From positions 1 through 64,000 of IMG/VR virus record IMGVR_UViG_3300027513_000011: a stretch of 64,000 nt of DNA, one strand, 5' to 3'. How positions within the stretch are numbered: position 1 is the first letter of the stretch; each line of letters starts with the position of its first letter. Below are positions 13,113 through 54,000 of the stretch, piece by piece. The notes beneath the pieces are model-generated. The model was not told where the DNA came from. It ran no database searches and was given only the letters and a program-made list of their open reading frames with translations. This DNA is from a virus. Its lineage: Duplodnaviria > Heunggongvirae > Uroviricota > Caudoviricetes. The position numbers were made by a program, and so were the translations under genes.

Positions 13113-13118
13113 GGATGG

Positions 13119-37545: not shown

Positions 37546-37629
37546 GGGTCGGAAATCCGGTGGTGAGCAGCTACCTCACGACGTTGATCGGACCCCGGCC
37601 CTTCCAGTATACCACAGGTGGATCTGAAG

Positions 37630-38112
37630 TCAAACGTGCGTCCATGTCCTCCGAGCCACGATTTGACCCACATTGGTTCGGTCTACCCCGTAAAGCCTAC
37701 CAAGGGTTGCTTTCCTTACGCCCATCGAGGCCAATGTTCTTATCCTCATCACATCTTCTCGGGCGAGCTTGCTGCTCCAGATCCGCTCTCCCCTAGCCTT
37801 CGCTCTCACATACCCCTCATCATTGAAGGGCAGTCTGCCCTTGGCGTAGGCATCCTTCATGTTGTCGCTGCGAGTGCCTTGGAACAAGTGCGCCGGGTTA
37901 CAGCAGGGAGGATTGTCGCAGTGATGACAGATCATTAAGTCGCTATCCAACCCACCGATGGCAAGATCGTATGCGATTCTATGGGCCATCTCTGCCTTGC
38001 CGGCAATCTTGAAGCGTCCGTACCCTGTCGGGTCGGCAGCAGCCATCCAAGGCCAACATTCGTCGTCGCCTCGACTGTCTACCTTTGACCAGAACCTATG
38101 TTCGTAGTCCAT
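37630..38112 (-). CDS. HNH homing endonuclease
   Basis: HHCDNPPCCNPAHL...GTRSDNMKD HNH_3-type motif. Confidence 0.65.
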   Translation of the reverse strand: MDYEHRFWSKVDSRGDDECWPWMAAADPTGYGRFKIAGKAEMAHRIAYDLAIGGLDSDLMICHHCDNPPCCNPAHLFQGTRSDNMKDAYAKGRLPFNDEGYVRAKARGERIWSSKLAREDVMRIRTLASMGVRKATLGRLYGVDRTNVGQIVARRTWTHV

Positions 38113-38208
38113 CTATCCATTCTACCACAGGTGGAGCAGTGGGAAATCGAATCCCAGTCCCGAGCCGAGCCTTCCGGTTTACGGTCGGTCGAACGCCATC
38201 CGCTGCCC

Positions 38209-38484
38209 CTAGCGCACCCGCTCCAGTGTACCGCCGTGGTCGTCCTGTAGCCAGATGTCGCCGGAAGTGTAAATAATGTAGGTCCGGTTGGTTCCTACCC
38301 ATCCCGACCCGCGGGGAATGAACTCAACCCAACGATACGGCCCCTTATCCTCCACGTTCCACTCTTCATCCCATTCTTCAACAGTGTTCAGATCATCCCA
38401 TGTCCCATACTCTGGGAAGGTGCCAGGCTCAACCTCGCACAGCTTCGACACCTTGCGATCACTACTGACTAGCTTCACGTTCAT
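38209..38484 (-). CDS. hypothetical protein (~91 aa)
   Basis: ORF track 38209..38556; internal ATG MNVKLVSS. Confidence 0.35.
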   Translation of the reverse strand: MNVKLVSSDRKVSKLCEVEPGTFPEYGTWDDLNTVEEWDEEWNVEDKGPYRWVEFIPRGSGWVGTNRTYIIYTSGDIWLQDDHGGTLERVR

Positions 38485-38493
38485 CGCTCTTCC

Positions 38494-39018
38494 TTGCTGT
38501 TGCCTATCGTTAGGTACTATAGTGGCGGAATGCCCGCATCCACCATCCACACCCATGCCGCCACCCTAGCAGCCGCCATCTGTGAGTGCATCGGACTGCT
38601 CGACCTGGAGGACTGCGACACCTGCTTCACGCGGGAAACCCTGTGTACCGGCAACTGTCCCCCCAGCCTGGGATGGTGCGGTGGGCCGGAATCTGAATGC
38701 ACCGGCATCTTCGTCAACTTCGTGGGCACTGACATTGACCTTGAGAATCGGTGCAATGTGGGCAAGCTCGCCAAGTACGAGGTTGGGTTGGTGATGTGCC
38801 CCCCAGCTCTACGCAGTGTCACCAATCCTGAGTTCGCCGCCCACCAGGAGTTCGCTGAGTGCATCATGTTTCTGGCCGAGAGCGTGTGGGGCTGCCTGGC
38901 GAATGTCATGTGCGACTGTGCCGAGTCGCTTACTGTCGGTGGCCTCGACATCATCGAGGTCGGTGGAATCCAATGCCAAGACGATCGGTTCGTCATCTCC
39001 GTTTCTGTTAGGGTGTAA
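38494..39018 (+). CDS. hypothetical Cys-rich protein (174 aa)
   Basis: more protein-like than overlapping minus ORF 38517..39146. Confidence 0.35.
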   Translation: MLLPIVRYYSGGMPASTIHTHAATLAAAICECIGLLDLEDCDTCFTRETLCTGNCPPSLGWCGGPESECTGIFVNFVGTDIDLENRCNVGKLAKYEVGLVMCPPALRSVTNPEFAAHQEFAECIMFLAESVWGCLANVMCDCAESLTVGGLDIIEVGGIQCQDDRFVISVSVRV

Positions 39019-39163
39019 CACATGAGATACCGATTCAACCTTTCTGTCTCCCCGTGGCGCCAAGGCCAGGTGGTGACAGCGAAAGAACTTGGTGATAGGC
39101 TGGGCGGGCTATTGATCCGCAACTTCATCACCGAGATCGAGGACAAGCAACGAGCGAGGAAGA

Positions 39164-39652
39164 ATGAGACTGAACAAGGACGGGACAGCCACCCTGCTAG
39201 TCAAGGGAGCCGAAGTGTCGCTCCCCGTGCCGACGTGGGGGCAGGTAAAGGGAAGGAAGGAAGCGTTCGAGAAGATGATCGAGTCACTGGCTCTGATCTT
39301 CACGACCGTCTTGGACACGATGACGGAGGACGAGAAGAGGATCTACGACAGGATCCTCCAGGAGAAGTCAAGGCGCACCGCCGCGTCCACGAAGGAGGGT
39401 CTGACGGCTGACGAGGAGTACAACCTGCTCCCCGAAGATGGACAGGAGAGGGTTCTCTCACTGTTCAAGGCCGTTCAGAACCAGATCAACACCGGAAAGG
39501 AACTCGCTGCCCACTGGTGGGTTGACACCGTGAAACTCCTCACTGAAGTAGAGGTCGCATCCGACGACCTGCCCAGCTCCCTCGCCTCAACAGACTCGGT
39601 TTCCACTTACCTCAACCACGTTCAGACCGTCCCTTTCCAATCTGGCCCCTAA
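39164..39652 (+). CDS. hypothetical protein (162 aa)
   Basis: ORF track. Confidence 0.35.
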   Translation: MRLNKDGTATLLVKGAEVSLPVPTWGQVKGRKEAFEKMIESLALIFTTVLDTMTEDEKRIYDRILQEKSRRTAASTKEGLTADEEYNLLPEDGQERVLSLFKAVQNQINTGKELAAHWWVDTVKLLTEVEVASDDLPSSLASTDSVSTYLNHVQTVPFQSGP

Positions 39653-39717
39653 GCGATGAGGGCGACAGCGACCCGCTAGCCCTCGACCTTTCACCACTGG
39701 GACGAGGGGCCGAGGAG

Positions 39718-40014
39718 TTGGCGTTGGAGAGGATCTTTGCCCATCGCTTCAACTGGTCGAGGGATCAGGTGAACGACATGCCTTTGCACTACATCGGTGC
39801 CTTCATGCACGACTTCGAGGCTGACGGAGCTCGGGCCGAGGCACAACGCGAGGGCTACACCCCCGACCCCAACCAGAGGGTCATCTACGACCCGCGGGTG
39901 CCTCTGCGCTGGCGGTCGAGGAACCCGGTGGCGGTGGACGCCAAGATCAGGCAGTGGAACAAGGCGCATCCCGATGAGCCGCCGATTCCGCCCCCCGACA
40001 TCAGGCCAGTCTGA
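39718..40014 (+). CDS. hypothetical protein (98 aa)
   Basis: ORF track; followed by long-loop hairpin ~40050..40090. Confidence 0.35.
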   Translation: MALERIFAHRFNWSRDQVNDMPLHYIGAFMHDFEADGARAEAQREGYTPDPNQRVIYDPRVPLRWRSRNPVAVDAKIRQWNKAHPDEPPIPPPDIRPV

Positions 40015-40141
40015 TGTGGTATACTGGTACCGTCAACGCAGGGGCCTAGGCTCCGAGCAGCGACAGGGGAAGTGGCCCCCCTCACCTTTACGAGCGTTAC
40101 CTCCTTCCGCCCGTACTGGTGAGGGGGGCTTCTGCGTCCGG

Positions 40142-40501
40142 CTACACCTTATCGATAGTCTTGCCGTTGTCGCCCATGATGTACATTTCGCGATCGTTGG
40201 AAGCCACCACCGCGCGCATGTGGCCTGTTTCCTCGTCCCGCCACATGGCGTACTTGAAAACCCACCAAGGCTCCGAGGGGCAAGGCTCCGCGAGGCTACC
40301 GTTAGGGACGCAATCGTAGAATCCGTCAGGGTCGCCGGCCTCGTCAAAGAGGCAGGTGAGATATCCCACACCGCCAACAGGGGTGTCCTGCACGACCTCG
40401 TTTAGCGGGCGATCCGTAACGAAGCGACCATACTTGAGGTCTGCCGACTTGGGAGGGATGAACAGGTCGATAGGGCCATCGGCCATAACCTTCACATACA
40501 T
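40142..40501 (-). CDS. hypothetical protein (119 aa)
   Basis: ORF track. Confidence 0.4.
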   Translation of the reverse strand: MYVKVMADGPIDLFIPPKSADLKYGRFVTDRPLNEVVQDTPVGGVGYLTCLFDEAGDPDGFYDCVPNGSLAEPCPSEPWWVFKYAMWRDEETGHMRAVVASNDREMYIMGDNGKTIDKV

Positions 40502-40689
40502 AGCATTCTTCTTTCGTCTTGTCCCGCGGTGTGCGGGCCTACTGACTGCAAGGGTAGCAGCAAACTACCCGAAACTGGTCCCATGTCACCGGCTAGGCCC
40601 TCACCAAGCAGCGGACAGGGGAAGCAACGGCTACGCTTGCGCTACGCCTAAGACCGTTCCGCTCGCCAGAGGCTCGCTTCACTCTACGG

Positions 40690-40718
40690 TTGACGGGGCG
40701 CTGACAATGTGATAGGAT
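40690..40718 (+). promoter_or_regulatory. promoter TTGACG-N17-TAGGAT
   Basis: hexamers read directly; first of three similar plus-strand promoters within 900 bp. Confidence 0.4.
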
Positions 40719-40724
40719 GGATCT

Positions 40725-40884
40725 GTCCTGCCCCGATGGGGGTGAGGGTGGTGTACACCCCTGAAGCTGGGACACCAGCGAAGGCTTGCGATGGCCGGAG
40801 GACGGAAAGAATCGTCGGTGCCACAACCGGGACACTGTGGACACGAGCCCTCCTAGAAATAGGGGGGTTCGTCGCGTCAGGGTC
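40725..40884 (+). ncRNA. candidate short transcript (could instead encode a 50-aa ORF 40736..40888)
   Basis: downstream of promoter; GGGGTG..CACCCC and CCCTCCTA..TAGGGGGG hairpins; no ORF of 60 aa or more. Confidence 0.25.
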
Positions 40885-40913
40885 TTGACGGAGCTGTTGG
40901 CCTGTAGTACAAT
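40885..40913 (+). promoter_or_regulatory. promoter TTGACG-N17-TACAAT (strongest match to consensus)
   Basis: hexamers read directly. Confidence 0.45.
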
Positions 40914-40919
40914 GGTTGT

Positions 40920-41105
40920 AGCGGGAGACTGCTGCTTGGTGTAAGGGCATACTCCCTAAAGGCGCAGGCGAACGGCAAGCTTTCTGAGCGGGGAAACCCG
41001 TGGAGGACCGTAGCTTGGCGGTAGTTTAAGAACGAGGCGTCGCTACACGCCTACTCCCGCTAGCCGGCGATGTGGCCCCCTCTGTGACGATGGAGGGGGC
41101 CACTC
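40920..41105 (+). ncRNA. candidate ~185-nt noncoding RNA
   Basis: strong promoter, no ORF, multiple local stems (GGGAG..CTCCC, CGGGGAAACCCG, GGCGTCGCTACACGCC), terminal 11-bp hairpin. Confidence 0.35.
41072..41103. terminator. hairpin GTGGCCCCCTC-tgtgacgat-GGAGGGGGCCAC
   Basis: perfect 11 to 12-bp stem; no U-tract (common in actinobacteria); lies between candidate ncRNA end and minus-strand HNH gene end. Confidence 0.4.
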
Positions 41106-41139
41106 AGCGCACTTCTATAGCGCAAACGATATAGTTGTG

Positions 41140-41487
41140 CTAACGCCGTTCGAGCAGTTTGCCGGCCACCCCAAACTCTGCCTGCCAGCCCACCCACTCG
41201 ACCAGGCCCCAGCCCTCTTCGACGCGCCGGTTCAGGATCCTGGTGAGCGCCTGATGAGCCTCCAAACACACGGGGCGCAGGTTGGCGTGGGCATTGCCGC
41301 CACCGAGGGACCGCGGGATGATGTGGTCGATGTTGGCCGAACCGTATGAGCCCTGGTGTGGCAGGTGCTTCAACTCAGGGATGCCGCCACACCAGCCGCG
41401 GGTGGCTAGCTCTCGGAGCAGAACGTGGGTCGGCTGAGTCTCCCCCTGCATTCTCTTAGGTAGCCGGTAGTGGAGCTCGTCAACCAC
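41140..41487 (-). CDS. HNH endonuclease
   Basis: HIIPRSLGGGNAHANLRPVCLEAH HNH motif. Confidence 0.55.
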   Translation of the reverse strand: MVDELHYRLPKRMQGETQPTHVLLRELATRGWCGGIPELKHLPHQGSYGSANIDHIIPRSLGGGNAHANLRPVCLEAHQALTRILNRRVEEGWGLVEWVGWQAEFGVAGKLLERR

Positions 41488-41573
41488 GCGGCCAATCCTA
41501 CCCTTTGTGTGCGAGCGCAGCGAGCCTAGCCGAAGGCTTCTTCCCCTGTCGCTGGTTGGTGATGGGCCTGGCG

Positions 41574-41602
41574 TTGACGACGGGGTGCGCTACTGATATC
41601 AT
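41574..41602 (+). promoter_or_regulatory. promoter TTGACG-N17-TATCAT with ATG at predicted TSS (leaderless)
   Basis: hexamers read directly; ATG 41609 ~7 nt after -10. Confidence 0.35.
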
Positions 41603-41608
41603 GCAGGC

Positions 41609-41905
41609 ATGGAACGTGGAAACGAGATACGTAAGGTCGTCACAGTTGGCCTAGCAGGAAAGACCGCTCTTCTTGCCTTCCAGTGGGAACGACCGCAGAA
41701 TCGCTGGACGTGGCGTATGTGGACGTACAGCACTGGGCCTTGCAGCGTGATACCGGAGCGAGATTACCTGACGCGGATCGGGCCGTGGCTGAACGGTCGA
41801 GCGGTGTCCAAACTCCACGGGGAGAACCTGCTGGTAGAATTACCTACAGAGCTTCTGCACCCGAGCCTGGCCTACAGGAAGAAATCTGACCTTGCTGCTG
41901 CCTAG
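41609..41905 (+). CDS. hypothetical Trp-rich protein (98 aa)
   Basis: ORF track; dedicated leaderless promoter. Confidence 0.35.
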   Translation: MERGNEIRKVVTVGLAGKTALLAFQWERPQNRWTWRMWTYSTGPCSVIPERDYLTRIGPWLNGRAVSKLHGENLLVELPTELLHPSLAYRKKSDLAAA

Positions 41906-42204
41906 CAGCCCAGCGCGTCATCATCCTCAGTAGCGAAGTAGCCTCTGGCCCTCTGCGCCTCTCGCGCCCCTACAATCATGTCGCGGATGCGCTGACTCAC
42001 CATCCACCTGTCGGCCATAGCGGCGTAGGGGCCGTCGCCAGCCCGCAGGTCGGTCACCAGCACCCCGCCCTGGCTCATCCAGCCGGAAGGTACCTCGATG
42101 CGCGGTGGATCGAGGTTGACGGCTGGCCTACTGACCAGCACGCCATCCGCCCATGTTCTTCGTCGGCCGCTCGTGGTAGGGGCATTTGGACGCCGGCCCC
42201 TCAA
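41902..42204 (-). CDS. hypothetical protein (start uncertain)
   Basis: ORF track; competing overlapping frame 42128..42397. Confidence 0.3.
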   Translation of the reverse strand: MRGRRPNAPTTSGRRRTWADGVLVSRPAVNLDPPRIEVPSGWMSQGGVLVTDLRAGDGPYAAMADRWMVSQRIRDMIVGAREAQRARGYFATEDDDALGC

Positions 42205-42242
42205 CCCACCGCTTGCCGCGTGGGTGGCGGTAGCACATGTGC

Positions 42243-42458
42243 CTAATCATCTCGAACCGTGCTTCGGATGACGCCAGCACGGCGATAGTGTGCCTGGGCC
42301 TGGAGCACCAACCCGTTCGACATGGCGGCGTTCCCGAGTCGTTCCTCGTTGCGGGCACGCTCTTCGCGGGGGTCAGCCTCGGTCCAGTATTTGTCATCAG
42401 AGATGTCTGGCAGATCGCCAGCTCCTCCGTAATGATGGGTGCGAACTCTCTCAGTCAT
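42243..42458 (-). CDS. hypothetical protein (71 aa)
   Basis: ORF track. Confidence 0.35.
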   Translation of the reverse strand: MTERVRTHHYGGAGDLPDISDDKYWTEADPREERARNEERLGNAAMSNGLVLQAQAHYRRAGVIRSTVRDD

Positions 42459-42729
42459 CGTGCCTTCCCCCTAGTTGGACCCGTATTCTCGGGTGTTCGT
42501 CATCGGATGGGTAGATAGTCAATGAAGATGTCTCCCCAACGGCCAGCACGTCCTCACCGTTGCTGACCCTGTACCTGTGTCCAGTCACATGATCGTCGGG
42601 GCGCCACGTCATAGCCCCATATTTTACCGGCTGGCCCTCATGGATGATCGTCCATGTCTCAAGATTGAGATGTTCGCCATATCCGAATACGTCGATGTCC
42701 TTGTAAAGAGACCTGGCATAGGTGGTCAT
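42451..42729 (-). CDS. hypothetical protein (92 aa)
   Basis: ORF track; coupled to ERCC4 gene. Confidence 0.4.
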   Translation of the reverse strand: MTTYARSLYKDIDVFGYGEHLNLETWTIIHEGQPVKYGAMTWRPDDHVTGHRYRVSNGEDVLAVGETSSLTIYPSDDEHPRIRVQLGGRHDD

Positions 42730-43439
42730 GTTCCTTCGGTTCCTCCGAATGCTCTCAGGATCGCGTCAGCTATCTTAGGCCCAACCCCCGGTATGGCCAG
42801 CAGTTCGGCCCGAGTGCCCTCCCACTTTATCGGTAGCGTGCCCCCTAAGGCCCCCAGGATCGCCGTAGAGCGTTTCTGGTTTACTCCGGGTACACTTTGT
42901 AGCAGAAAGGCAGAGAAGGCGGGAGAACCCACGTCACCGTACCTGCGGTCAACCCTGGCGGTGAGGCCAGAGGGTTCGCCACGCTGGGTGTACTCGTGCA
43001 GTGTCCTCACCACCCGTGCCGTGTCGTTCTGGCTCTGGGACCACTTCACGGCTATCCCGTGGTTCAGCCACAGCGAGAACTCCAGGTTGGTCAACGCCTG
43101 GAGGTTCATGGATCCGTAGTCGTACATCAGCTCGCCAGTCTCGGTGAAGTATGCCTGACCCTCCAGCACCAGATACCGGATGGCGAGCTCCTGCATCTGG
43201 TCGATCTCTTTACCCAACCTCCCGTCGCGGAGGGAGGCTAGGAGGTCAGCTGGGAAAGCCTTGCGCTGGACCCCGACGAGGCCCATGGGTGACCCCCACA
43301 TGAAGTCAGCACCGTACTCTTCGGGGAGGTTGGTGGATTCGCCCAAGGCGCGGAGGGCGGGGTCACGCTCGGCGCCGGAAACGAAGATGGTCACCGGGTT
43401 TCTCGCCAGATCACAACCAGAGTGCCGAACAGGAAGCAC
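42726..43439 (-). CDS. ERCC4-type (XPF/Mus81/Hef-like) nuclease with C-terminal helix-hairpin-helix
   Basis: nuclease-like N-terminal region and IPGVGPKIADAIL HhH motif. Confidence 0.5.
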   Translation of the reverse strand: MLPVRHSGCDLARNPVTIFVSGAERDPALRALGESTNLPEEYGADFMWGSPMGLVGVQRKAFPADLLASLRDGRLGKEIDQMQELAIRYLVLEGQAYFTETGELMYDYGSMNLQALTNLEFSLWLNHGIAVKWSQSQNDTARVVRTLHEYTQRGEPSGLTARVDRRYGDVGSPAFSAFLLQSVPGVNQKRSTAILGALGGTLPIKWEGTRAELLAIPGVGPKIADAILRAFGGTEGT

Positions 43440-43479
43440 AGCGACCCGGCTGCGTAGAACCAGTAGGGAAGCAACCTCA

Positions 43480-44337
43480 TTAGTCAGCCACCACCGACCA
43501 GTTGCCTCGATCCGCCGCCAGTAGGTAGCTCATACCGAACCCTCCCCCATCCTTGCTCTCACCCACCAACAACTGCGAGGTTGACCGTTCCCCCCGGTCC
43601 TTGATGTAGCTAACCACATGACCCACCCCTGTCCTACGGATCAGCATGATGGTGTGAACCTTGTGATCCAGCGACTTGTGACCATCGGGCCTCAGTCCAA
43701 TCTGCCCGTAGTCCAGCCATGCCGAGTTGTCCGGCTTCGGCTTGCCCTTCGGGTTCTCGTAGTGCTCGAAGATCTGCTTCGGCTCAGCGGTGGCGAACAG
43801 GTGGGCGCCCATCTCGACCGACAGTTTGAGCACAATGTCATGCTCCCACAGCCCGAGGAAGGCGTTGCGAATCATGATCCAGTCGTCGGGCTCGATCAAT
43901 GGACCTTTGCGATCCTTGTAGGCATCAGAGAAAGCCCTCTCGAACTCAAGCTCGTCCCTGGTCATGCCGTACTTCTTGTCGAAGAACATGCGTTGGGCCT
44001 GCTCGTAGCCCGTGGATGCGGTGTCGCACACAACCCAGTCTCCGGGCTTGATGACCTCGCGCAGCCCCCGAGCCCACATCTTATAGAGGCGGAAGTCGGT
44101 GGTCTGGGTGACATGCACGTTCTCAAGGTGACCGTAGGCCGACATGGACCGCTTTACGGCCTGGTCAGTATCCGCGACATAGAACTGCTCGCCGGACCCG
44201 AGCTTCTGAACGAGGTCAGCGATGTCGAGCCAGCACTGGGTCTTGCCGCCACCTGCGGGACCGAAGATGAGGAACCGTTCAGGGTCGTAGCCGACATTGA
44301 CGCCGGCCAAGATGAGGTCGGGTGGTTTCAATGCCAT
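43480..44337 (-). CDS. RecA-fold P-loop ATPase (Sak4-like recombination ATPase)
   Basis: Walker A FGPAGGGKT near N-terminus, ~285 aa, Walker B-like VVCDTAS. Confidence 0.55.
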   Translation of the reverse strand: MALKPPDLILAGVNVGYDPERFLIFGPAGGGKTQCWLDIADLVQKLGSGEQFYVADTDQAVKRSMSAYGHLENVHVTQTTDFRLYKMWARGLREVIKPGDWVVCDTASTGYEQAQRMFFDKKYGMTRDELEFERAFSDAYKDRKGPLIEPDDWIMIRNAFLGLWEHDIVLKLSVEMGAHLFATAEPKQIFEHYENPKGKPKPDNSAWLDYGQIGLRPDGHKSLDHKVHTIMLIRRTGVGHVVSYIKDRGERSTSQLLVGESKDGGGFGMSYLLAADRGNWSVVAD

Positions 44338-44339
44338 AT

Positions 44340-44546
44340 CTATCGGCCCTTGTCTAGTTCGTAGGCGCCTTTGTCGGTCATCACTACAAGAACATCGCCG
44401 TTCCTACTCCCCTGAACGTAAAGCCAGTCGGCTAGGTCGAATGTGATAGGAGAGAATCGCACCCGCGCTTGGTGAATAGCAGCGTTGGCGTAGTCCGTGT
44501 GGTAGAAGTGGGTGAATGCCCAGTAGACGGGATTGTTGTCTGCCAT
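44340..44546 (-). CDS. hypothetical protein (68 aa)
   Basis: ORF track. Confidence 0.35.
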   Translation of the reverse strand: MADNNPVYWAFTHFYHTDYANAAIHQARVRFSPITFDLADWLYVQGSRNGDVLVVMTDKGAYELDKGR

Positions 44547-44692
44547 CAGCGTCCCCCTAGTGCTTTCTCGATCAGGTACTTCACAATGGCCGTGAACTTC
44601 CTGGTCCCCAGATTCCTCTCGCCCCAGTCAGCCAGAGCCGAGTGTGTGTTGTCCGAGATCCTGATGGATCGGACGCGAGTACCTTTACTCAT
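44546..44692 (-). CDS. ribbon-helix-helix (CopG/Arc-like) DNA-binding protein (48 aa)
   Basis: internal ATG with ATGA overlap; RVRSIRISDNTHSALADWGE beta-strand then two helices. Confidence 0.4.
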   Translation of the reverse strand: MSKGTRVRSIRISDNTHSALADWGERNLGTRKFTAIVKYLIEKALGGR

Positions 44693-44883
44693 ACGAGCAC
44701 CTTGTTCTTCCTTGCCCAACGATCCCATTGCTTCAGGGTTCGTTCCTCCCCATCCATATCCCACTCTGGGTGAATCTGGGCTGTACCTGCTACAACTTCA
44801 GCGGCTCGGTACACCCCTAGGCCCCTATCCCATAGTGAGAAGATCAGGTAACGACGGAGCGTAAGCCTAGATGCCTTACTCAT
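44689..44883 (-). CDS. hypothetical protein (64 aa)
   Basis: ATGA overlaps on both sides. Confidence 0.35.
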   Translation of the reverse strand: MSKASRLTLRRYLIFSLWDRGLGVYRAAEVVAGTAQIHPEWDMDGEERTLKQWDRWARKNKVLV

Positions 44884-45890
44884 GCGTATCCTTTCGGCCC
44901 CTTCACGTTCAGCCTCCGGCCCTTGGTCTTGAAGTCCTCAAATCCGACACCGTGATCCTTGAGGAACGCGGCCAGCTTCTCTCGATCCTCTTTGTCATAG
45001 GGTGTAATACTAGCAGTGAATCCCGTCAAGGTCTGCACTTTCCCGGCACCCACCCTGGCCTTGATCTTCTCAGACAGCTCAGCCTTCTGCTTCTTGATGC
45101 GGCCCTCATCATCGAGGAGGCTCCGGTACACCATGAGCCAGCCGTCGAGCTCGTCGTCGTCAACCTCCTCGACACCATCCAGCCCTGGCAGGATGGCGAG
45201 ACAGGAGAGGACATCGCGGTGGCTGCACTGCCACTTGTTCGCATCCGGGTCACAGTACGAATTGTCGTAGAGCACGGTGCGGTCGGCGGCGTACCCACCC
45301 ACGATGCGTGCCACTTGCCCCAACCGATCATGAATAGCCGTTCTGCCATACGGGGCCTCCTTGAGAATGGTGATCGACAGCTCCCCGGTGTTCCGGTTCT
45401 TCACCGTGTACAGGACCGGCAGGCCGTGGCATGACATGTAGTGGGAGATCTGCCAGGCGTGGCCGGGATGCTTCGAGAAGGTGGGTACCCCATTGACCAC
45501 CGACTGCATCCACAGCTTGAACTGCGCTTCGGACTTCGACTTGCACTCCCACCCGAACATCGCATCATTTCCCAAGGCCCAGATGCCCTCGTAGTGGCCC
45601 GTAATACGAAACCTCATGTCGCCCACCTTGTAGTCCTGCTCGCAGGTGCCCTGTGGATTGACGAGATGGAAGCCCGGATACTCCTGTTCGATCTTACGGG
45701 CCACGGCCGGCTCGTGTAGGTGACCTTCCTCGGCCGAGATCATCAGAGCTTCGGAAGCTGGTGGAGCCTTGTGGCCGAGAATGAGGGCGGCAATGGAGCG
45801 CGGGCAGTCGCCTAGGGTCGAGGCGCGTAGGTAGATGATGCCGCTCTGAATCTGGACGGGAGGACGGTCGTTGGACTGGTCGAGGGTCAT
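44880..45890 (-). CDS. PD-(D/E)XK exonuclease (YqaJ/lambda-Exo-like) with C-terminal extension
   Basis: DMRFRITGHYEG ... FGWECKSKS (D...ExK) core; internal ATG with ATGA overlap. Confidence 0.5.
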   Translation of the reverse strand: MTLDQSNDRPPVQIQSGIIYLRASTLGDCPRSIAALILGHKAPPASEALMISAEEGHLHEPAVARKIEQEYPGFHLVNPQGTCEQDYKVGDMRFRITGHYEGIWALGNDAMFGWECKSKSEAQFKLWMQSVVNGVPTFSKHPGHAWQISHYMSCHGLPVLYTVKNRNTGELSITILKEAPYGRTAIHDRLGQVARIVGGYAADRTVLYDNSYCDPDANKWQCSHRDVLSCLAILPGLDGVEEVDDDELDGWLMVYRSLLDDEGRIKKQKAELSEKIKARVGAGKVQTLTGFTASITPYDKEDREKLAAFLKDHGVGFEDFKTKGRRLNVKGPKGYA

Positions 45891-46279
45891 CGGATCTTCC
45901 TCAAGGTCACTGTCGCATGAGAGTTCAGGATCATGTGGTTGCTCAGCACGCCTCCGACCTTGGCCGGGTCTGGACCGTACATGCGTACTCCGCAGGTGTC
46001 GCAGGCAACCTCCCAATCGGCGGTGGAGCGCTTTACTGGGGGCTCGTCAACAAGGCTGGGGTAGCGGACGGGTAGGAGATCCCAGTCAACGAATCTGTCG
46101 ACAATCGACTCGACAAACGCCTGGCACTCCGATGTGCTCCATCCGTCAGGGAGCATCAGTTCGTTGTGGAACCAGAAGTTGTAGTCGGCTTCTCGGGAGG
46201 ACTCTCCGTTCTCGTAACCTGTCTCATAGCAGGCCATACATGGCTTGGGAGGGTTAGTGCAGGTGTGTTCGGGCCTCAT
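45887..46279 (-). CDS. hypothetical Cys-rich protein (130 aa)
   Basis: ORF track. Confidence 0.4.
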   Translation of the reverse strand: MRPEHTCTNPPKPCMACYETGYENGESSREADYNFWFHNELMLPDGWSTSECQAFVESIVDRFVDWDLLPVRYPSLVDEPPVKRSTADWEVACDTCGVRMYGPDPAKVGGVLSNHMILNSHATVTLRKIR

Positions 46280-46734
46280 CAGAAGTCTCCCGAGTATCTA
46301 GCTGGTTGTCTGCTGTTGGTTCGTTCGCGATGGCAGTTGGAGCACACCACTTCACACTTCTCAATCTCTAACAGGATCTTGCTAAACGCCATCTTCCGAC
46401 GACGCATGGTAGATATCGGGTACAACTTTTTGCCTTTCTCGGGTATGTGGTCAAACTCCATGACGTATGGTGGGTACTGAATGCCGCAATCTGAGCAGGG
46501 AACGCCCTTGCGCGAGTTGATGAGATTGTCTAGCCCCCTGCCCCGCTTCCTCGCCAGCTTGAAATACCTTTCCTTGTTCCGTCGATAGTTCTCTCTACCT
46601 ATTTCATTATTGCACGGACGGCAATACCCAGCCCGATGAGCGTATACGGGAGCATCCTCACACCTAGGACATATTCTCTCCACTAAAATGCGCCGTCCGC
46701 GACCTGCAAACACGTCAAGCCCAGCCTGCGCCAC
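46279..46734 (-). CDS. HNH endonuclease with zinc ribbon
   Basis: CPRC..CRPC zinc finger plus EFDHIPEKG...VVCSNCH HNH motif; GTG start. Confidence 0.55.
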   Translation of the reverse strand: MAQAGLDVFAGRGRRILVERICPRCEDAPVYAHRAGYCRPCNNEIGRENYRRNKERYFKLARKRGRGLDNLINSRKGVPCSDCGIQYPPYVMEFDHIPEKGKKLYPISTMRRRKMAFSKILLEIEKCEVVCSNCHRERTNSRQPARYSGDF

Positions 46735-47612
46735 ATGGCTACTACCCTGTCCCTGTCATCAAGCACCCATAGCACGTTGTATCGGTCCCTGATGTGGGTG
46801 TTGAAGATCTCCAGCTTCACCTGATCGTCGGGGCGCTTGTCGTCGGCACGACGCATGAACAAAGCGTCGTAACGTATGCCTTGATTCTTGAGCCATTGCT
46901 CAGTGTCCTCGCGGCATGAATCAGGTCGTCCCGACACGAGCAAGGTGCGAAGGCTTCTTTTCCCCATGCTGCATTCGTTGAAATGAAGATCCAGATAGAT
47001 GATTAGGTCATCTATTGGGGTGTTGAGACTGTCAGTGGAGACAAGGCTGTAGTCATAGGGACTACGGTTGTGTAGCGCCAAGGTACCATCAAGGTCAACG
47101 ATGATGGCCTTGCGTAGTTCCTCGTTGTGGACAACAGGTTCAGGTGTCAGTACCGGGTCAGCCGTCAGGTCAGGTGCAGCCGGCAGTACCCCCGCAGCCT
47201 TGATCCCATACCTTGCCGCCGTGTCCCTGATGAACTTCTCGCCCACGGTAGGGACTCGGCCGATATCTCGGCCCACCAAAACATCAAGGGGCTGCTCGAA
47301 GTCCTCAACCCTCACCGTGGCCCCGTACTTGTGGCCCAGCTTCGCCCACTCGCGAACGTACTTGGACTTCAGGTTCATGGCGTCGGCCACCACTGACCGA
47401 CCCGACTTCAGGGCAGCCTCAGCCATCGCCTTCTCGGCCACGGTGATCGACTTCTCAGCCTCGTAGGTGTAGAAGGGCCGACCATGTAGCGACATGCGGA
47501 GGTCGTCACGGTTGACGCGGATCCTGTGCTCCGGGTCGTCGGCAGCCCAGGACCGTGCCCAGGTGGACTTGCCGGAGGCGGGGAGGCCGCGGGTGATGAT
47601 GAGCTCAAGCAT
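46683..47612 (-). CDS. pnkP: polynucleotide kinase-phosphatase (P-loop kinase plus HAD 3'-phosphatase)
   Basis: P-loop GLPASGKSTWA N-terminal; HAD motif IVDLDGT in C-terminal half. Confidence 0.65.
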   Translation of the reverse strand: MLELIITRGLPASGKSTWARSWAADDPEHRIRVNRDDLRMSLHGRPFYTYEAEKSITVAEKAMAEAALKSGRSVVADAMNLKSKYVREWAKLGHKYGATVRVEDFEQPLDVLVGRDIGRVPTVGEKFIRDTAARYGIKAAGVLPAAPDLTADPVLTPEPVVHNEELRKAIIVDLDGTLALHNRSPYDYSLVSTDSLNTPIDDLIIYLDLHFNECSMGKRSLRTLLVSGRPDSCREDTEQWLKNQGIRYDALFMRRADDKRPDDQVKLEIFNTHIRDRYNVLWVLDDRDRVVAMWRRLGLTCLQVADGAF

Positions 47613-48663
47613 CGGCGCCCCATTTCGGTTTCGCATCTCCGCGCGGTTTCAGATCCTTCAGCGCCAGCATGTAGATGTCGGACAGGCTGGCCCCGTCGTA
47701 GAGCTTGAACAGCAGGTGGCGGCGGGGATGATCCTGCGCGCCGATGGCGAAGGACTTGCGATCAGTGGACATGTACTTGATGCCCTCAAACGCTATCTCG
47801 GCATCAGATACCTGCCTCGACGCCTCAGTATCCAGTTCCAGGGCCACTTGCGTAGCCCATCCGTACAGTTCGTCAGGTAGTTCAGCGGCCTTGGCGTCGA
47901 AGGTGTTGCGATCAGGGTCCATTAGCCACTCCCACACCACCCGCTCGTTGAGCCCGAAGATGATCTTGTGGCGGGCCAGGTAGTCGGCCTGCTTCACCTT
48001 CCACATGTGTTGAGGAGGGCCGCATTCGTAGATGACGTAGCCTTCGGCGTTGGTGCGATCGGGTAGGGCTAAGGCGTCACGCGCCTTCATGTGGATAGGA
48101 TAACTGGGAGATATCCACCCAGTATCTAGGCTCACGCCGGCCAGCAGTTTCAACTCCTCAGTGTCCCCGTAGTCGAGCACGATGCGGTTTTCCGGGTAGA
48201 TGATCTCGAACAGGTAGGTGAGGGCGGGCCGCATGTCCATAGCGGCTCTACCCCAGTGTTCCTTGAAGATCTGCCCCCCTCGCACTGCCTGCTCCGACGT
48301 GAACGATCCCCGTGACGCCATGTGCCACTGGTCCCGGTACCAGAACGCTATCCCGAGGCTCCCGTCGTGCTTGTCGGTCACCCACACGTCCTGATCGGGG
48401 TCGAGCTCAGGCGCGCCGGGTTCGCCCACGTTGAAGAACTTGCGGAAGGGGCGGGCCACAACCTCGCCAGTGTCACGATCAGCTACGAGGCCGCGGCAAG
48501 TCATCGTGGTTTCGTTCCAGTGCCGGGCGTAAACACACTGCTCGGTGTAGTTACAGATGTAGAGGGGTAGGGTTGGATGCTTGGCACATCTAACATTGCC
48601 GGCCTGTACCTCAGCGTCTAGGTCTGGTGCGATATCGAGGACAAACACCATCAGGACTGCCAA
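47605..48663 (-). CDS. RNA ligase (ATP-dependent, nucleotidyltransferase fold)
   Basis: motif I KHDGS, motif IV AEGYVIY, motif V WKVKQ; directly upstream of and overlapping pnkP. Confidence 0.65.
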   Translation of the reverse strand: MAVLMVFVLDIAPDLDAEVQAGNVRCAKHPTLPLYICNYTEQCVYARHWNETTMTCRGLVADRDTGEVVARPFRKFFNVGEPGAPELDPDQDVWVTDKHDGSLGIAFWYRDQWHMASRGSFTSEQAVRGGQIFKEHWGRAAMDMRPALTYLFEIIYPENRIVLDYGDTEELKLLAGVSLDTGWISPSYPIHMKARDALALPDRTNAEGYVIYECGPPQHMWKVKQADYLARHKIIFGLNERVVWEWLMDPDRNTFDAKAAELPDELYGWATQVALELDTEASRQVSDAEIAFEGIKYMSTDRKSFAIGAQDHPRRHLLFKLYDGASLSDIYMLALKDLKPRGDAKPKWGADA

Positions 48664-48826
48664 TCCTTAGCAGCTTCTCGGAGAACGGCAGCCAACATGA
48701 TCGCTGTCACGATGCCAAGGCTGGTACCACCCACGTATAGGTTCTCACCTTCAATGATGTCAGTGATGAAACCGGCCAGTGAGAACCCCCACATACCTCC
48801 GAATATGATTCTCCAGATCAGTCCGC

Positions 48827-49519
48827 TCATCCCATCTCCTCCCTCGTGTCGAACCTTCCGTACTCCTCAGCCTTCTCCACCGACGAGAACACGAACAGCA
48901 CCATCGCGTGCCAGGCCACATGCGAGACATGAGGCAGGCCGCTATCCGGGTCCAGATCCTCGCCTTGAAGGAACGCCGACAGGTGCCGCATCAGGGCCGC
49001 GTAGGACAGCGACCAGTCGTAGCCTCTTCGCCAGTTGTTGTCACCGTAGATGCCGGCGCCGAACCCGCAAACCTCGGCCAGTGCCCATAGGAACCGCTGG
49101 TCGATGAGGTCGAAGCGAGCTGACTTGGTGCCCTTTTTACCCCCGGTGTCGGAGGTAACGATGTCGCGCTTGGCCTTTTCGTAAGCCTCGCGGTACTCGG
49201 GGTTATCGAGGCGTTGATTTAGATACCTCTCTGCCCCTGTTTCCTCACAGGCTTCACCGTATCCACATTCACATTTCCATGTTGCTTCGACCTCGATTGG
49301 GGATACGGGTTCACAGTTGGGTGGATCTGCTAGGCACCCGATTGCCTCACCGGTCCAACTGGTGTGCAGCATCTCCTGAGGCACCATTTCAGTTTCCCCA
49401 TCCAGCGTGTTGATGAACTTGCGGCGAGTCTCGTTACGGGGCTTGCAGTACTGGCACCGACAGTCCATGTTGAAATTGTGTTCCCCCATGACGTGGTGCC
49501 ACCATGCCTCCTCGGTCAC
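48827..49519 (-). CDS. hypothetical protein with conserved phage C-terminal domain (230 aa)
   Basis: N-terminal Cys-rich region; C-terminal RFDLIDQRFLWALAEVCGFGAGIYGDNNWRRG domain. Confidence 0.45.
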   Translation of the reverse strand: MTEEAWWHHVMGEHNFNMDCRCQYCKPRNETRRKFINTLDGETEMVPQEMLHTSWTGEAIGCLADPPNCEPVSPIEVEATWKCECGYGEACEETGAERYLNQRLDNPEYREAYEKAKRDIVTSDTGGKKGTKSARFDLIDQRFLWALAEVCGFGAGIYGDNNWRRGYDWSLSYAALMRHLSAFLQGEDLDPDSGLPHVSHVAWHAMVLFVFSSVEKAEEYGRFDTREEMG

Positions 49520-50097
49520 GGTGCCACCAGCTCAACGAACTCGTCCCATCCGCGCACCACCTGATACCTCTCGTCCCTCTCCATGATCTCGAACGCTCCC
49601 CAGTTATGCGCCTGGCCGAACAGCACCCCGTTTCTATGCTCCCTCACGTTGTCGGGCCTGTCGTCAAGCAACCACAGCCCATCAGTGTTCTTCTTGTCGC
49701 CCTTGCCCTGGAACCAGATCGAGTGGTACGGGATCTTCCATTCCTCCAACCAGGCCGACGTGTTGGCGATGATCTGGGCGTGGAACATGGGCCAGCCCAA
49801 TCGCTGGGTCACGATCCTGATGCGGTAGCCGGCCTCATCGAGCCTGCCCATACCCTCCACGGATCCGTCGATTGGGAACCCTTCGCGGAAGATGTACTCA
49901 GCCGCCAGTCCTTTCTGCACCCAGCCATTGAACTCGGCATCCGACATGTTCCAGTCCACAGTCGGGAAGTTCCAAGTGGTGGCCTGACGCGGGTACCTCT
50001 TGAACGAGTCGTGAAAGATGAAGTCGGACACGACCTCGGAGAACACGGGGTACACCACGCCGTCAAGGTCGATGTCGATAGTGGGTCGGTCAGTCAC
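49516..50097 (-). CDS. HAD-family 5'(3')-deoxyribonucleotidase
   Basis: DIDLDGVV HAD motif I at N-terminus and overall NT5C-like layout; GTG start overlapping upstream stop. Confidence 0.6.
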   Translation of the reverse strand: MTDRPTIDIDLDGVVYPVFSEVVSDFIFHDSFKRYPRQATTWNFPTVDWNMSDAEFNGWVQKGLAAEYIFREGFPIDGSVEGMGRLDEAGYRIRIVTQRLGWPMFHAQIIANTSAWLEEWKIPYHSIWFQGKGDKKNTDGLWLLDDRPDNVREHRNGVLFGQAHNWGAFEIMERDERYQVVRGWDEFVELVAP

Positions 50098-50269
50098 GGA
50101 GCTCCTTCTTGACCTCTACAGAAGCCCACCATGCGCCGGTAGCAGTGTAAACCCTGATATCACCTACAGTCTCCCACCCGAACCACGCGCCACCTAAACT
50201 GTTCCGAAGCCTTCGGATAGCCTCATCCTTTGTGCCGGCGCTGGATTCTGCATTTGCTGTAACCTTCAT
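50090..50269 (-). CDS. small hypothetical protein (59 aa), first gene of leftward island operon
   Basis: ATG with AGGAGAAGGG RBS 6 nt upstream; stop overlaps GTG start of next gene (GTGACTGA); below ORF-track cutoff. Confidence 0.4.
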   Translation of the reverse strand: MKVTANAESSAGTKDEAIRRLRNSLGGAWFGWETVGDIRVYTATGAWWASVEVKKELRD

Positions 50270-50533: not shown

Positions 50534-51031
50534 GTGATTGAAACTGATACAACAATGCCGGTCAATGTCCAAGACTATTCAACGATAGATACTGATTGCA
50601 CCGGCATCCACGAGGAGCCGGTTACCATCACCCCAGGGTGGCGGAACCGAGCTATCTGCTCTGAGGAAACCTACGACCAGTTCTCGTGGTGTGGGGAGAG
50701 GGCCAAGTCCAGGCCCTACGAGAAGGCTATCTGCTGGGAGGAGTGCCCTGTCCGTAAGGAATGTCTCACCGAGGCGATAGTCCAGATGGAGAAGCACTGC
50801 ATCTACGGGGGTTACAACTTCGGACAGCGGAGACTCATCTGGCGTAGGTGGAAGGATGCCGGCACTCTCCCTGACGTGGAGCGCACCTATGTGAACGCCG
50901 AAGAGATGTGGCGTTTGGCTACCGAGTCCTCGACCTCGCGTTATGCCGAAACAGTCAAGCCCGCCCTTGATTACGAATACGACGAGCCCAGCGAGCGACA
51001 ACTCCGGGCCATAGAGGACGAATCCTCATAA
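50534..51031 (+). CDS. whiB: WhiB-family Fe-S transcription regulator
   Basis: four Cys including CWEECPVRKECL (CxxCxxxxxC) as in WhiB/Wbl. Confidence 0.55.
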   Translation: MIETDTTMPVNVQDYSTIDTDCTGIHEEPVTITPGWRNRAICSEETYDQFSWCGERAKSRPYEKAICWEECPVRKECLTEAIVQMEKHCIYGGYNFGQRRLIWRRWKDAGTLPDVERTYVNAEEMWRLATESSTSRYAETVKPALDYEYDEPSERQLRAIEDESS

Positions 51032-51060: not shown

Positions 51061-54000
51061 ATGGCGAATCAGAACTTCCGCGTCGGGGTGTCCGCCGACG
51101 TTACTGCTGCGCGCACTGCCCTCCGTCGCCTTGAAGCAGATTTCAAGGACATCAAGATCGACTTCAACTCGGGCACCGTCGCCGTCGAGTTGCAGAAGGT
51201 AGAGCGGGCCATCAATGGGGTGGACAAGTCCTTCGGCACCCTGAACTCGAAGCTCACCAACCTCGCTGAGCGTTTCCGCACCTTGGACCGTGCCGCCGAT
51301 CCGGTTAACACCAAGCTGCGTGATATCAAATCAGTTATCAATGACTTCGATACCGACGCTGACCGTGCCGCCGACAACATGCAGCAGTTGGCTCGTGCCA
51401 TTGTCGCCGTTGACCGTGCCCTCAACAAACTAGAGCCGCAACGCAGGGAGGAGCAGTTCGAGTCATTTGCCCGCGGGGTGGAGCGCCTGCGCCGGGCCTT
51501 CGCTACCACTGACGACGATGCTGCCAAGTTGTCCCGCGAGATCCGCGACCTGGCCGACGCTGCCCGTACCGCTGACCGCGCTACCGACAACCTCGGACGC
51601 TCGGTTCGCCGTGTCCGAACCACCGCTATCGGGCCGGCCGGACTCGCTTCTCGCTCTGGTGGTTCCCCGTTTGGGTTCATCGGTGCCTCCGGTCCCCTCG
51701 GGTTCCTCGGCATCGGTGGTGTGGGTGCTGGCGCTGCCATCGGGGCCGGCGTCATCGCAGGTATCTCGGCCCTCGCCTTCGGGATAGCGACGGCAACAGG
51801 GGCCACGGTTAGGTTCGTCGCTGCTACCTCTCAACTCTCCGCGGAGTTCGACCGCCTGATCCGTACCGCCAACGTGCTCGCGGGTGGTGACGCTCTCGGG
51901 GTGTTCTCCGAGGCGGCTCTCCGCGAAGGTGCCCGTACCATCTTCACCGCCTCTGAGGCTGCCGAAGCCCTCGGTGAACTGGCCCGAGCCGGCTTCGATG
52001 TCGAGGAAGCCATCGGTGCCCTGCCCGGTGTCCTCGACCTGGCGGCTATCGAACAGACAGACCTCGCGGCCACATCTCTCATCGTGGCACGGACTCTCCG
52101 TGCCTTCCAACTTGACGCCTCGGCTGCCGGTGTGGTCGCTGACGTGCTCGCGGAAACCTCCGCCGCGTCCGCTACCTCAGTCACCGAGCTCTCCAACGGA
52201 CTCAAGTTCGTGGCCCCGATCGCCTCTCAGCTCAATATCCCTCTGCAGGAGGTCGCCGCCGCTATGGGTGTCCTCGGGGACAACGGCATTGTCGCCACCA
52301 TCGCGGGTACCAACCTGCGCTTCGCTCTCAACTCTCTCCTGGCGCCCACCGCTCCCGCCGCTGCCGCTATGGAGGAGCTGGCCCTGGTCACCACTGACGC
52401 GGCGGGCAACTTCGTCGGCCTCGAAGCCATCATCAACCAGCTTGCTGATGCCCAAGAGCGGATCGGGAACACCGCCCGCTTCAACGCCCTGATAGTCGAG
52501 GCGTTCGGTACCCGTGCCGCTGGCGCCATCCTCACTCTGGTCGAGAACTCGGAACTTCTGAACACCCGCATCGGTGAGAACTTCCGGGCCTTCGGGCGCG
52601 CCGCAGAGATTGCTCAGGAGCAGTTGGCGGGCCTCGAAGGTGCCTTGGAGAGGTTGCGCGGTGAGTTCGAGGCGCAGCAGATCACATCGTTCCGGCTCAC
52701 CGGGCTACAGGATTCGCTCACCGCTGCCGTGGCTGCCGCCGAGGATGCGTTGCCCGCCCTGTTCGAGTCCATCGTGGATCCCATATTCAACGAGATCGCC
52801 ATTGGGGTGAGCCTGCTGCGAACCGAAGTGTTCCCCAGCATCCTCGACGCGGCCCCCGAGTTCGGCGAGATCTTCGGGGACACGATTGCCTCAGTGTTCA
52901 ACTTCATCACCACCAACGACGACTTCGTTATCGAGTCCCTTCTCGCTGTGGCTAACGCGGCGCAGGGGATCGTGGACATTTTCATTGGCATCGGGGTAGT
53001 GGCCGAAACGGTGCTCAACCCACTCATCACCCTGTTCAACAACCTCAACGACACTATCCAGGGTGCCGTGGTGGGCGGTGGACTGGGTGCCGGCATCGGT
53101 ACCTTCATCGGTGGGGTCATCGGGCTGGCCGGTGGGCCGATCGGTGCAGGCATTGGAGCGGCCATCGGCGGGAGTGCCGGTGCTCTTCTGGGTAGCCTCG
53201 GTGCTGCCCTCGGTGAGTCCAGTGTTCAGCGCGAGGCCGCTGAGTTCGGTGTGGAGCTCGGTACCAGCATCAATACGGGAATCGCTGACGGGCTCGACAT
53301 TGGTGAAGCCATCGAGCAGGCCCTCCAGACCGTCGAGTTCGGTGTCGATGTCGAAGGGTTTGCCGATGTAGTCAATCTGCAAGCCGACCTTCAGGAGCGT
53401 ATGGATGAGCTTCGTGAGGTCACTTCGGCGGCGACCACATCTATAGGTACCGGCGACCTAGAAACCGCCAAGCGCCTGTTCGACAGCATCGGCATCTCGC
53501 TTGATACGGTGGCTACAAGGTCGGGGGCGATACCGGGGATCACTGACGCCTTCCGCGAAGTGAACACCGAGATGACTCGACTGGCTACCGACGCGGAGGC
53601 CAACGCTGCTCGTATCGCCGCGGTGTTGACTGACCCTGCTGTTGCCAACATCGTTGACCAGGAGATCGCCCGCGCCAACGAGATCGTCGCCAACTTCCAG
53701 TCTCAGGGTGTCAACAACTTCCTGGTTGACTCCGACCGCGCCGCCATCCTTGAGCGCATCATCGAAGGCCATCCGCTCGCCGGGCTGGTCGAAGCCAGGG
53801 GTAGATTTGAGGAGTTTGGTGAAGTGTCGGCCGAGGATGCTGACAGGATCCTGCGCGACTACGCCGATAGTGTCATCAAGTCGGCAGGTAGCCAGGCACA
53901 GCGCATCGCATCGGAGATTGGTCCCCAGATCCTTCAGACCGTGGAGACTCTAGAAGGGTTCGGTGCCGCCATCGCCAAGGTTCTCGCGTCTCTTGGCACC

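Follow-up and report, generated by a model that had tools for sequence, protein, structure and literature searches.

Three clustered promoter-like sites in an actinobacteriophage genome and a widespread family of structured phage RNAs

What is made from three near-identical promoter-like sites that lie within 900 bp of one another in a phage genome? The sites, here called promoters P1, P2 and P3, were found in 64,000 nt of tailed-phage DNA (Caudoviricetes; positions 1 to 64,000 of IMG/VR record IMGVR_UViG_3300027513_000011), hereafter the window. The original prediction for this locus took them as one array with a structured non-coding RNA after P2 and a leaderless open reading frame (ORF) after P3, and proposed a small-RNA, antisense or origin-like regulatory hub. 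Our analysis retains the RNA and gives up the hub. We are highly confident that positions 40919-41062, behind P2, are the gene of a conserved structured RNA, which belongs to a family of 84 distinct copies in phage isolates, viral and soil metagenome contigs and five bacterial genomes. The explanation we favour for the whole locus, with a probability of roughly 0.6, is that the three sites head three independent units and that the P2 RNA, a member of a widespread phage family, is a stable RNA acting in trans.

The covariance model of the family, R1, matches the window copy at 113.6 bits (E = 2.7e-22, model positions 1-149), and this is the sole copy in the window. The window sequence is one of the 15 seeds of R1; its membership is also supported by an independent 32-nt identity and by compensated helices. 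The window copy has the closing helix with GGAG/CUCC, helices P2 and P3, the AGGGCA hairpin, the junction UUAAGAACG and the invariant hairpin that characterise the family. Its central domain includes a hairpin with a GAAA cap. The minimum-free-energy structure of the single sequence equals the family consensus structure, and the fold of 40920-41110 beats those of shuffled sequences (z = -3.95). The predicted stretch of about 185 nt after P2, described as free of ORFs and ending in a hairpin, is borne out: no plus-strand ORF of at least 30 amino acids (aa) lies between 40945 and 41136, and the terminal hairpin (41072-41103) comprises 14 bp in the fold.

A megablast search with the region returned a single match, a perfect 32-nt identity (41026-41057) at an unannotated spot in the genome of Rhodococcus phage ReT1v-1. 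The ReT1v-1 locus has a similar RNA, in which the closing helix is compensated (GGGUGGAG/CUCCACCC vs AGCGGGAG/CUCCCGCU in the window). The same 32-nt 3' module is also 100% identical in many loci that are otherwise without DNA similarity. An exact-word scan with a 24-mer from the match found nine IMG/VR contigs, and a second probe taken from the 5' half (GGTACAAGGGCATGTCCC) found five further viral contigs. With one degenerate base, the 24-mer occurs in five of 185,579 species genomes (two Microbacterium, Brevibacterium, Leucobacter and a Solirubrobacterales metagenome-assembled genome). A degenerate form of the 24-mer gave 104 metagenome stretches, 80 of which were taken as loci. Searching isolated phages by blastn with one whole member recovered 26 Arthrobacter phage records, Microbacterium phages DizzyRudy and Damascus, ReT1v-1/2 and Stenotrophomonas virus Jojan60. 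Each locus gave one R1 match, and never were there several per genome or locus. Two of the five bacterial genomes were inspected, and both copies are prophage-borne; the Microbacterium hydrocarbonoxydans copy adjoins HNH and large-terminase genes, and the Brevibacterium copy is identical to a viral-contig copy. Rfam 15, run on the window copy and two other members at the gathering threshold and at E <= 10, gave no family on the transcribed strand. The searchable literature holds no paper with the conserved sequences or a description of the RNA family, although a description elsewhere is possible.

Individual members differ in their annotation and size. In the CapnMurica group of phages the RNA lies at genome positions 325-476 and is unannotated. 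Jojan60 is the sole proteobacterial phage found with the family; there the RNA (L021 3074-3214) directly follows four transfer RNAs (tRNAs) and is overlapped by a deposited 'hypothetical protein', probably a mis-annotation. The Leucobacter genome carries a 223-nt version (L020 1874-2096), whose variable central domain holds a large additional insertion.

To derive the structure, 15 members were aligned with MAFFT and the alignment was folded with RNAalifold; R1 was built from the result. In this MAFFT-only alignment the structure has 33 pairs, 18 of them with compensatory changes. When all 84 distinct sequences were aligned by fitting to R1, 94% of pair cells held standard pairs, compared with 77% in column shuffles. 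The covariation score was 0.47-0.48, against 0.17 in shuffled alignments and at most 0.09 with partners slid by 1-3 columns. Double changes occur in 23 of the 33 pairs, and in 26 of 36 once an extra helix is added. This three-pair helix, absent from the model, was found in a mutual-information scan, and all three of its pairs covary; it reads ACA/UGU in most members and GUA/UAC in the window copy, and closes the invariant loop AGGGCA. Taken together, the compensatory base changes argue for six helices. Folding and covariation across homologous phages, which had been proposed as the check on a structured RNA after P2, thus yield a family structure with strong compensatory changes.

The overall plan of the RNA is a closing helix with the inner GGAG/CUCC, two further helices, the AGGGCA hairpin, a variable central domain, and the 3' junction and hairpin. 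The unpaired junction and the hairpin AGGCGN-CGCYAC-NCGCCU are nearly invariant, and the columns of the 3' module are invariant in alignments A1 and A2. A U-G pair is present in 83 of the 83 sequences with letters at that position, and a G-U pair in 52. These pairs fix the transcribed strand and place the constraint on RNA rather than on duplex DNA. The nucleotide in column 18 of alignment A2 pairs equally well with column 61 or column 222 (extended helix P2 or the base of helix P3), an ambiguity that may reflect alternative conformations or a base triple. For the central domain of the family, a GNRA loop was considered and dropped, since the commonest loop there, GGCA, is not of that type. 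Visual resemblances to the 3' end of 16S rRNA, to 5S rRNA, to the 23S GTPase centre and to Y RNA stems are short and confined to subsets.

The genomic surroundings of the family connect it with tRNAs. Same-strand tRNA genes lie within 1.5 kb of the RNA in 32 of 83 loci (~40%), and an opposite-strand tRNA in one locus only. A tRNA ends at most 10 nt upstream of the RNA in 19 of the 83 loci, often at 0-2 nt, and one starts at most 15 nt downstream in 12. The RNA thus fills a tRNA-like slot in the arrays, which would imply co-transcription with the tRNAs and release by tRNA-processing enzymes. The tRNA directly 5' of the RNA in ReT1v-1 (L001 2297-2375; record 39565-39643) has an 8-nt anticodon loop and the four-base anticodon CGGA; an annotated opposite-strand coding sequence overlaps both this tRNA and the RNA.

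A further link is to RNA repair. The ligase gene rtcB lies within 100 nt of the RNA in five loci, upstream in L051, L063, L064 and L084 and downstream in L070. An integrase gene adjoins the RNA in L084 and L070. The window holds the non-rtcB repair route, a T4-type RNA repair pair of overlapping PNKP and Rnl1 genes, 5.6-7.6 kb from the RNA. Genes for HNH endonucleases and large terminase often lie near family members.

Some 60% of family members stand alone, the window copy among them: the sole tRNA of the window (Ser, 38130-38224) is 2.7 kb away from it on the opposite strand, and the window contains no rtcB. Among stand-alone relatives, a TANNNT hexamer ends 3-14 nt upstream of the RNA in 26 of 61, compared with 1 of 61 in a control window, and locus L002 has TTGACG-N17-TATGTT ahead of the RNA. 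A strong GC-rich hairpin follows within about 20 nt in a subset that includes the window and CapnMurica. The upstream -10 enrichment and the downstream hairpins suggest that the stand-alone form is a transcription unit of its own, and it is presumably transcribed as such.

In the window, the pattern TTGACG-N17-TANNAT has exactly three matches in 64 kb, all on the plus strand. The shuffle mean is 0.03 and no shuffle reaches three, so that the pattern is 100-fold over chance. A generic promoter scan picks the same three sites, which agree with the consensus at 9-10 of 12 positions. Each has a -35 hexamer near TTGACA, a spacer within 17 +/- 1 nt and a TANNNT -10, as sigma-70/sigma-A promoters do. 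The three predicted promoters are thereby upheld as sites. The closing helix of the P2 RNA starts 6 nt past TACAAT, the expected start-site distance, and promoter P2 probably drives the 144-nt RNA. The hairpin that follows ends 37 nt ahead of the 3' end of the convergent HNH gene and is a probable two-way terminator.

The stretch behind promoter P1 would give a hairpin-rich RNA, whose fold (40725-40884) beats shuffles with z = -3.38. It has no DNA homologue in phages or in the family loci. The 50-aa ORF within it does end inside the -35 of promoter P2, as predicted. This ORF has no true homologue among 1.84 billion representative proteins; its sole match, a 26-repeat adhesin, is compositional only. 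The putative P1 transcript was rejected as a paralogue of the P2 RNA, as neither R1 nor blastn gave a match. When the P1 RNA and the 3' module were scanned for RNA-RNA duplexes with the window, nothing informative emerged.

Promoter P3 apparently heads the 98-aa gene as a leaderless mRNA, the arrangement that the original prediction had pointed out. A homologue of the 98-aa protein, P0001 (87% identical), is encoded on ENA contig L127. There the gene is preceded by an AGGAG ribosome-binding site, and its upstream region is different and lacks a P3-like promoter. The gene is therefore real, and the leaderless promoter is specific to the window phage.

Promoter P3 also has an upstream element of 35-45 nt directly 5' of its -35. 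Such an element stands directly 5' of the -35 at three promoter-like sites in the region, and promoters P1 and P2 have none; it may be the binding site of a regulator. Its CAGCGACAGGGGAAG repeat was considered as a ribosome-binding site or mini-ORF signal and rejected, as there is no start codon at a workable distance and the repeat sits upstream of -35 hexamers. Both RNA units and the HNH gene are flanked by two inverted copies of the element, and look as if they had been inserted into a divergent promoter region. Further left, 40017-40129 (+) holds an extended -10-like sequence, TGGTATACT, and behind it one copy of the upstream-element repeat and, at 40075-40129, a 22-bp hairpin. The stretch may encode another RNA, of about 100 nt, or simply hold the terminator between convergent genes. 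The features of the locus and the main landmarks of the window are collected in the table.

Table. Positions of the features discussed, in window coordinates
Feature	Position	Strand	Remarks
Large terminase gene	19773-21221		
Portal gene	21970-23529		26% identity to Gordonia and Mycobacterium phage portals
ORF	39164-39652	+	neighbour of the promoter region
ORF	39718-40014	+	neighbour of the promoter region
Third upstream-element copy, inverted	40037-40075 (40008-40075 with site)	-	TTGACG 40036-40031, poor -10 CAGACT
Leftward promoter-like site	40589-40562	-	GTGACA 40589-40584, 16 nt, TAGTTT 40567-40562
Second upstream-element copy, inverted	40590-40625	-	adjoins the leftward site facing gene 40142-40501
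Promoter-like site P1	40690-40718	+	TTGACG, 17 nt, TAGGAT, TG ahead of -10; sequence match only
Putative P1 transcript	40725-40884	+	hairpin-rich, 150-160 nt, ends in 13-bp hairpin (~40843-40872)
50-aa ORF after promoter P1	40736-40888	+	ATG 40736, TGA 40886-40888
Promoter-like site P2	40885-40913	+	TTGACG, 17 nt, TACAAT
Structured RNA, 144 nt	40919-41062	+	conserved phage RNA family, covariance model R1
RNA helix P1	40919-40927 / 41054-41062	+	closing helix
RNA helix P2	40929-40933 / 41020-41024	+	
RNA helix P3	40934-40940 / 40962-40969	+	
Small RNA helix GUA/UAC	40941-40943 / 40950-40952	+	caps invariant loop AGGGCA (40944-40949)
3' module of the RNA	41026-41057	+	junction UUAAGAACG, hairpin AGGCGU-CGCUAC-ACGCCU, then A + CUCC
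GC-rich hairpin	41072-41103	.	between convergent RNA gene and HNH gene; 14 bp in fold
HNH endonuclease gene	41140-41487	-	convergent with P2 RNA; Pfam HNH 26 bits (above cut-off), PHROGs HNH families
Upstream element CTTCCCCTGTCGCTG...GGCC...GCG, 35-45 nt	41535-41573	+	directly 5' of P3 -35
Promoter-like site P3	41574-41602	+	TTGACG, 17 nt, TATCAT
98-aa ORF	41609-41905	+	neighbour of the promoter region; ATG about 6-7 nt past P3 -10; leaderless arrangement
PNKP kinase-phosphatase gene	46683-47636	-	
Rnl1-type RNA ligase gene	47605-48663	-	
WhiB gene	50534-51031		
Tape-measure gene	51061-55404		

These observations can be joined into a model. Promoters P1, P2 and P3 would each head a separate small transcription unit in a mosaic stretch: an orphan hairpin-rich RNA at P1, the 144-nt structured RNA gene ending at the strong hairpin at P2, and a leaderless mRNA for the conserved 98-aa protein at P3. 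The P2 RNA would be stable and act in trans, and in arrays its relatives would be cut from the array transcripts along with the tRNAs. The invariant module of the RNA may bind a partner that is itself conserved and belongs to tRNA metabolism or RNA repair; the RNA could, for example, serve as decoy or cofactor when the host attacks tRNA. That the RNA works in tRNA metabolism or RNA repair is a tentative suggestion. Somewhat more speculative is the idea that the family forms a new class of structured RNA in phages, with a functional tie to phage tRNA arrays and to the breakage and repair of RNA (rtcB, PNKP/Rnl1). Such an RNA could be a decoy or cofactor in a tRNA-cleavage conflict, or a self-processing intron-like element able to live in an ORF, with the junction-plus-hairpin module as its active or binding site.

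Several points weigh against this model. The three promoters are predictions from sequence matches. The hairpin behind the P2 RNA has no U-tract, and a terminator scan omits it for want of a T run; actinobacterial terminators often lack a U-tract. Because most members were collected by means of the invariant 24-mer, part of its invariance follows from the way of collecting; the 3' module is nevertheless kept, with 0-3 changes, in members that came from the second probe or from whole-member blastn. The loci have no conserved protein partner, and no protein is common to most of them. The links to tRNAs and rtcB may reflect the known co-location of tRNA arrays and rtcB (PMC8421152), so that the rtcB link may be indirect. 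Lastly, copies of the element inside rtcB ORFs point to mobility rather than to a host-directed function.

These in-gene copies are an argument for regarding the element as selfish. In locus L036 (903-1058, minus strand of the locus) a 156-nt element lies inside the rtcB ORF, in frame and stop-free. A full-length protein of 508 aa (P0003), 98% identical to the L036 protein, is encoded on a contig of 10 kb, 1.6 kb upstream of a large terminase; the P0003-type rtcB is therefore a phage gene. A 78% identical gene (P0004; L130 524-630) carries, at this very site, a shorter version (about 105 nt), likewise in frame and stop-free, which retains the closing helix and the 3' module. Chromosomal rtcB orthologues of Conexibacter, Paraconexibacter and Patulibacter are without the insertion, and removing the 156 nt restores exact collinearity. 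The family could thus be a selfish mobile element, intron-like or a palindromic insertion, whose spread is perhaps helped by HNH neighbours, whose structure is kept for mobility or excision, and whose promoter is incidental or part of the cassette. HNH genes are indeed frequent neighbours, in the window too, and the window copy sits between inverted upstream-element copies as if inserted in a divergent promoter region. The mode of conservation is, however, typical of a functional RNA, in which helices drift with compensation and unpaired nucleotides stay fixed, and in arrays the element occupies a tRNA-like slot on the tRNA strand. It occurs once per genome or locus, and once in the window, and so lacks the many near-identical copies per genome of a palindromic element or a miniature inverted-repeat transposable element. 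A self-splicing intron needs neither the reading frame nor the freedom from stops that both in-gene versions keep. The element is below known intron sizes at 105-156 nt, and matches no group I or group II intron family of Rfam at E <= 10. When the element is removed from each of the 83 loci, only rtcB yields a credible spanning ORF, so that one gene lineage alone carries in-gene copies. We therefore consider the mobile-element explanation unlikely.

The three other explanations fare worse. A cluster of three similar promoters invites the reading as an antisense or small-RNA hub or a replication origin, with transcripts acting in cis on the minus-strand neighbours, and the P2 RNA and the HNH gene are convergent, so that a transcript running on beyond 41103 would be antisense to HNH mRNA. 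Yet gene 40142-40501 lies to the left of promoter P1, which points the other way, so that the P1 transcript cannot be antisense to that gene as had been proposed, and the 14-bp hairpin separates the RNA from the HNH gene, so that the second proposed overlap needs read-through. The RNA is kept in dozens of genomes with unrelated neighbours; its target therefore cannot be the adjacent gene. The region has no iterons, tandem repeats or AT-rich stretch, as an origin would, and three separate units in a mosaic region agree better with the data than one functional array does. Nor are all the flanking genes on the minus strand, as the original prediction had stated; three neighbouring ORFs are on the plus strand (see table). 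The hub is very improbable. Even less credible is an invariant 3' part that is an attachment-site core, copied by integrating phages from the 3' end of a host small-RNA gene. The 32 identical nucleotides shared by otherwise unrelated phages, and the two loci with adjoining integrase genes, would fit such a core. The rarity of the 24-mer in species genomes and the prophage location of the two inspected copies, however, leave no host gene available as a target; the copies are complete RNAs, with compensation in their 5' halves, and not 3' fragments, and several carriers are lytic-type isolates and tRNA arrays. Equally hard to sustain are small proteins encoded after P1 and P2. The 50-aa ORF follows P1, and hypothetical proteins have been called over the RNA in Jojan60 and ReT1v-1. 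Against this, the profile of GC content at third codon positions shows no coding signal across 40502-41139, where every flanking gene differs, there is no plus-strand ORF after P2, and the 50-aa ORF is an orphan. Across the homologous regions conservation tracks base pairs, not codons; protein-coding homologues were the outcome named in advance as fatal to the predicted RNA.

The window itself is a phage of an actinobacterial host, an assignment made on the evidence of its terminase, portal, tape-measure and WhiB genes. No close DNA relative was found among 50,697 phage records, and a search of viral contigs gave no close relatives of the flanking proteins; there is therefore no syntenic comparison for P1 or for the promoters. 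The region is 100% identical in two other public assemblies (L128/L129; ENA ERZ27267613 and Logan SRR5468956), so the same phage has been sampled at least two further times. The promoters lie in a mostly minus-strand island (37600-50100) between the head genes and the WhiB and tape-measure genes, which therefore splits the structural module. The island contains an HNH-AP2 gene, tRNA-Ser(cga), an ERCC4 nuclease, the PNKP and RNA ligase genes, a dATP/dGTP diphosphohydrolase and an NT5C nucleotidase. The HNH gene next to the RNA has TAGGAT 7 nt ahead of its GTG start (41488-41500, minus strand), the same leaderless-type geometry as at P3. Elsewhere, the window encodes a 741-aa FtsH-like protein with AAA and Peptidase_M41 domains (11004-13229, minus strand), unusual in a phage, and near it an SPFH/Band 7 protein (8845-9906) and an FkbM methyltransferase (4212-5669).

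Phage tRNA arrays and RNA-repair enzymes are now read as weapons against host defences that cleave tRNA. A conserved, unannotated RNA travelling with both would be a missing player in this conflict. The family occurs in cultivable SEA-PHAGES isolates and is thus directly testable. With six covarying helices and an invariant core of about 30 nt, it is a compact and good target for structure determination. Several deposited genomes leave the RNA region blank or call a hypothetical protein there, and their annotation can be corrected. For the window, three defined units, a real RNA gene among them, take the place of the 'regulatory hub'.

Among known systems, YrlA invites comparison because it is a non-coding RNA beside rtcB, in rsr-yrlA-rtcB operons; it mimics tRNA, has a stem formed by its 5' and 3' ends, and in some cases is processed by tRNA enzymes (PMC4201824). 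The present family shares the position beside rtcB and the end-to-end stem. YrlA is defined by the Ro-binding stem GNCGAAN0-1G, tRNA-like D and T arms and a TROVE gene neighbour. The present family shows neither the Ro-binding motif nor the D and T arms, its consensus has no T-loop, and there is no Rfam match; no neighbour of about 500 aa other than the large terminase is shared among loci, although no hidden Markov model search was aimed at TROVE. Transfer-messenger RNA (tmRNA), which some actinobacteriophages also carry, has a similar acceptor-like closing helix, a long second helix and a hairpin just ahead of the 3' strand of the closing helix. The hairpin loop of the present family, however, is of 6 nt and not a T-loop, and there is no tag reading frame; ARAGORN calls no tmRNA in the window or the loci, and no Rfam tmRNA family matches. 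ARAGORN and the Rfam tRNA model call the neighbouring tRNAs and never the element itself.

Rickettsia palindromic elements are in-frame selfish insertions in genes. The likeness lies in an element of about 100-150 nt with pairing ends that is found in frame in rtcB and also between genes. The present family differs in its single copy per genome, its deep compensatory covariation and its host range. GOLLD and ROOL are several-fold larger RNAs, of hundreds of nucleotides. They too are structured RNAs whose function is unknown, and they often lie near tRNAs and in prophages (PMC5737381). They come from different phyla, and the family members tested have no Rfam match to them.

RNAC and RNAD of phage T4 are encoded in the tRNA gene region of T4. 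They are phage RNAs of roughly 100-150 nt whose function is still unknown (PMC9697503). They resemble the present family in size and in being phage-encoded, and they are made with phage tRNAs, as the array members of the family would be. The host of T4 is E. coli, whereas most carriers of the present family are phages of Actinobacteria and the RNA often has a putative promoter of its own, and there is no evidence of homology. We file the RNA described here as a new family of a known general kind, the phage stable RNAs that travel with tRNAs.

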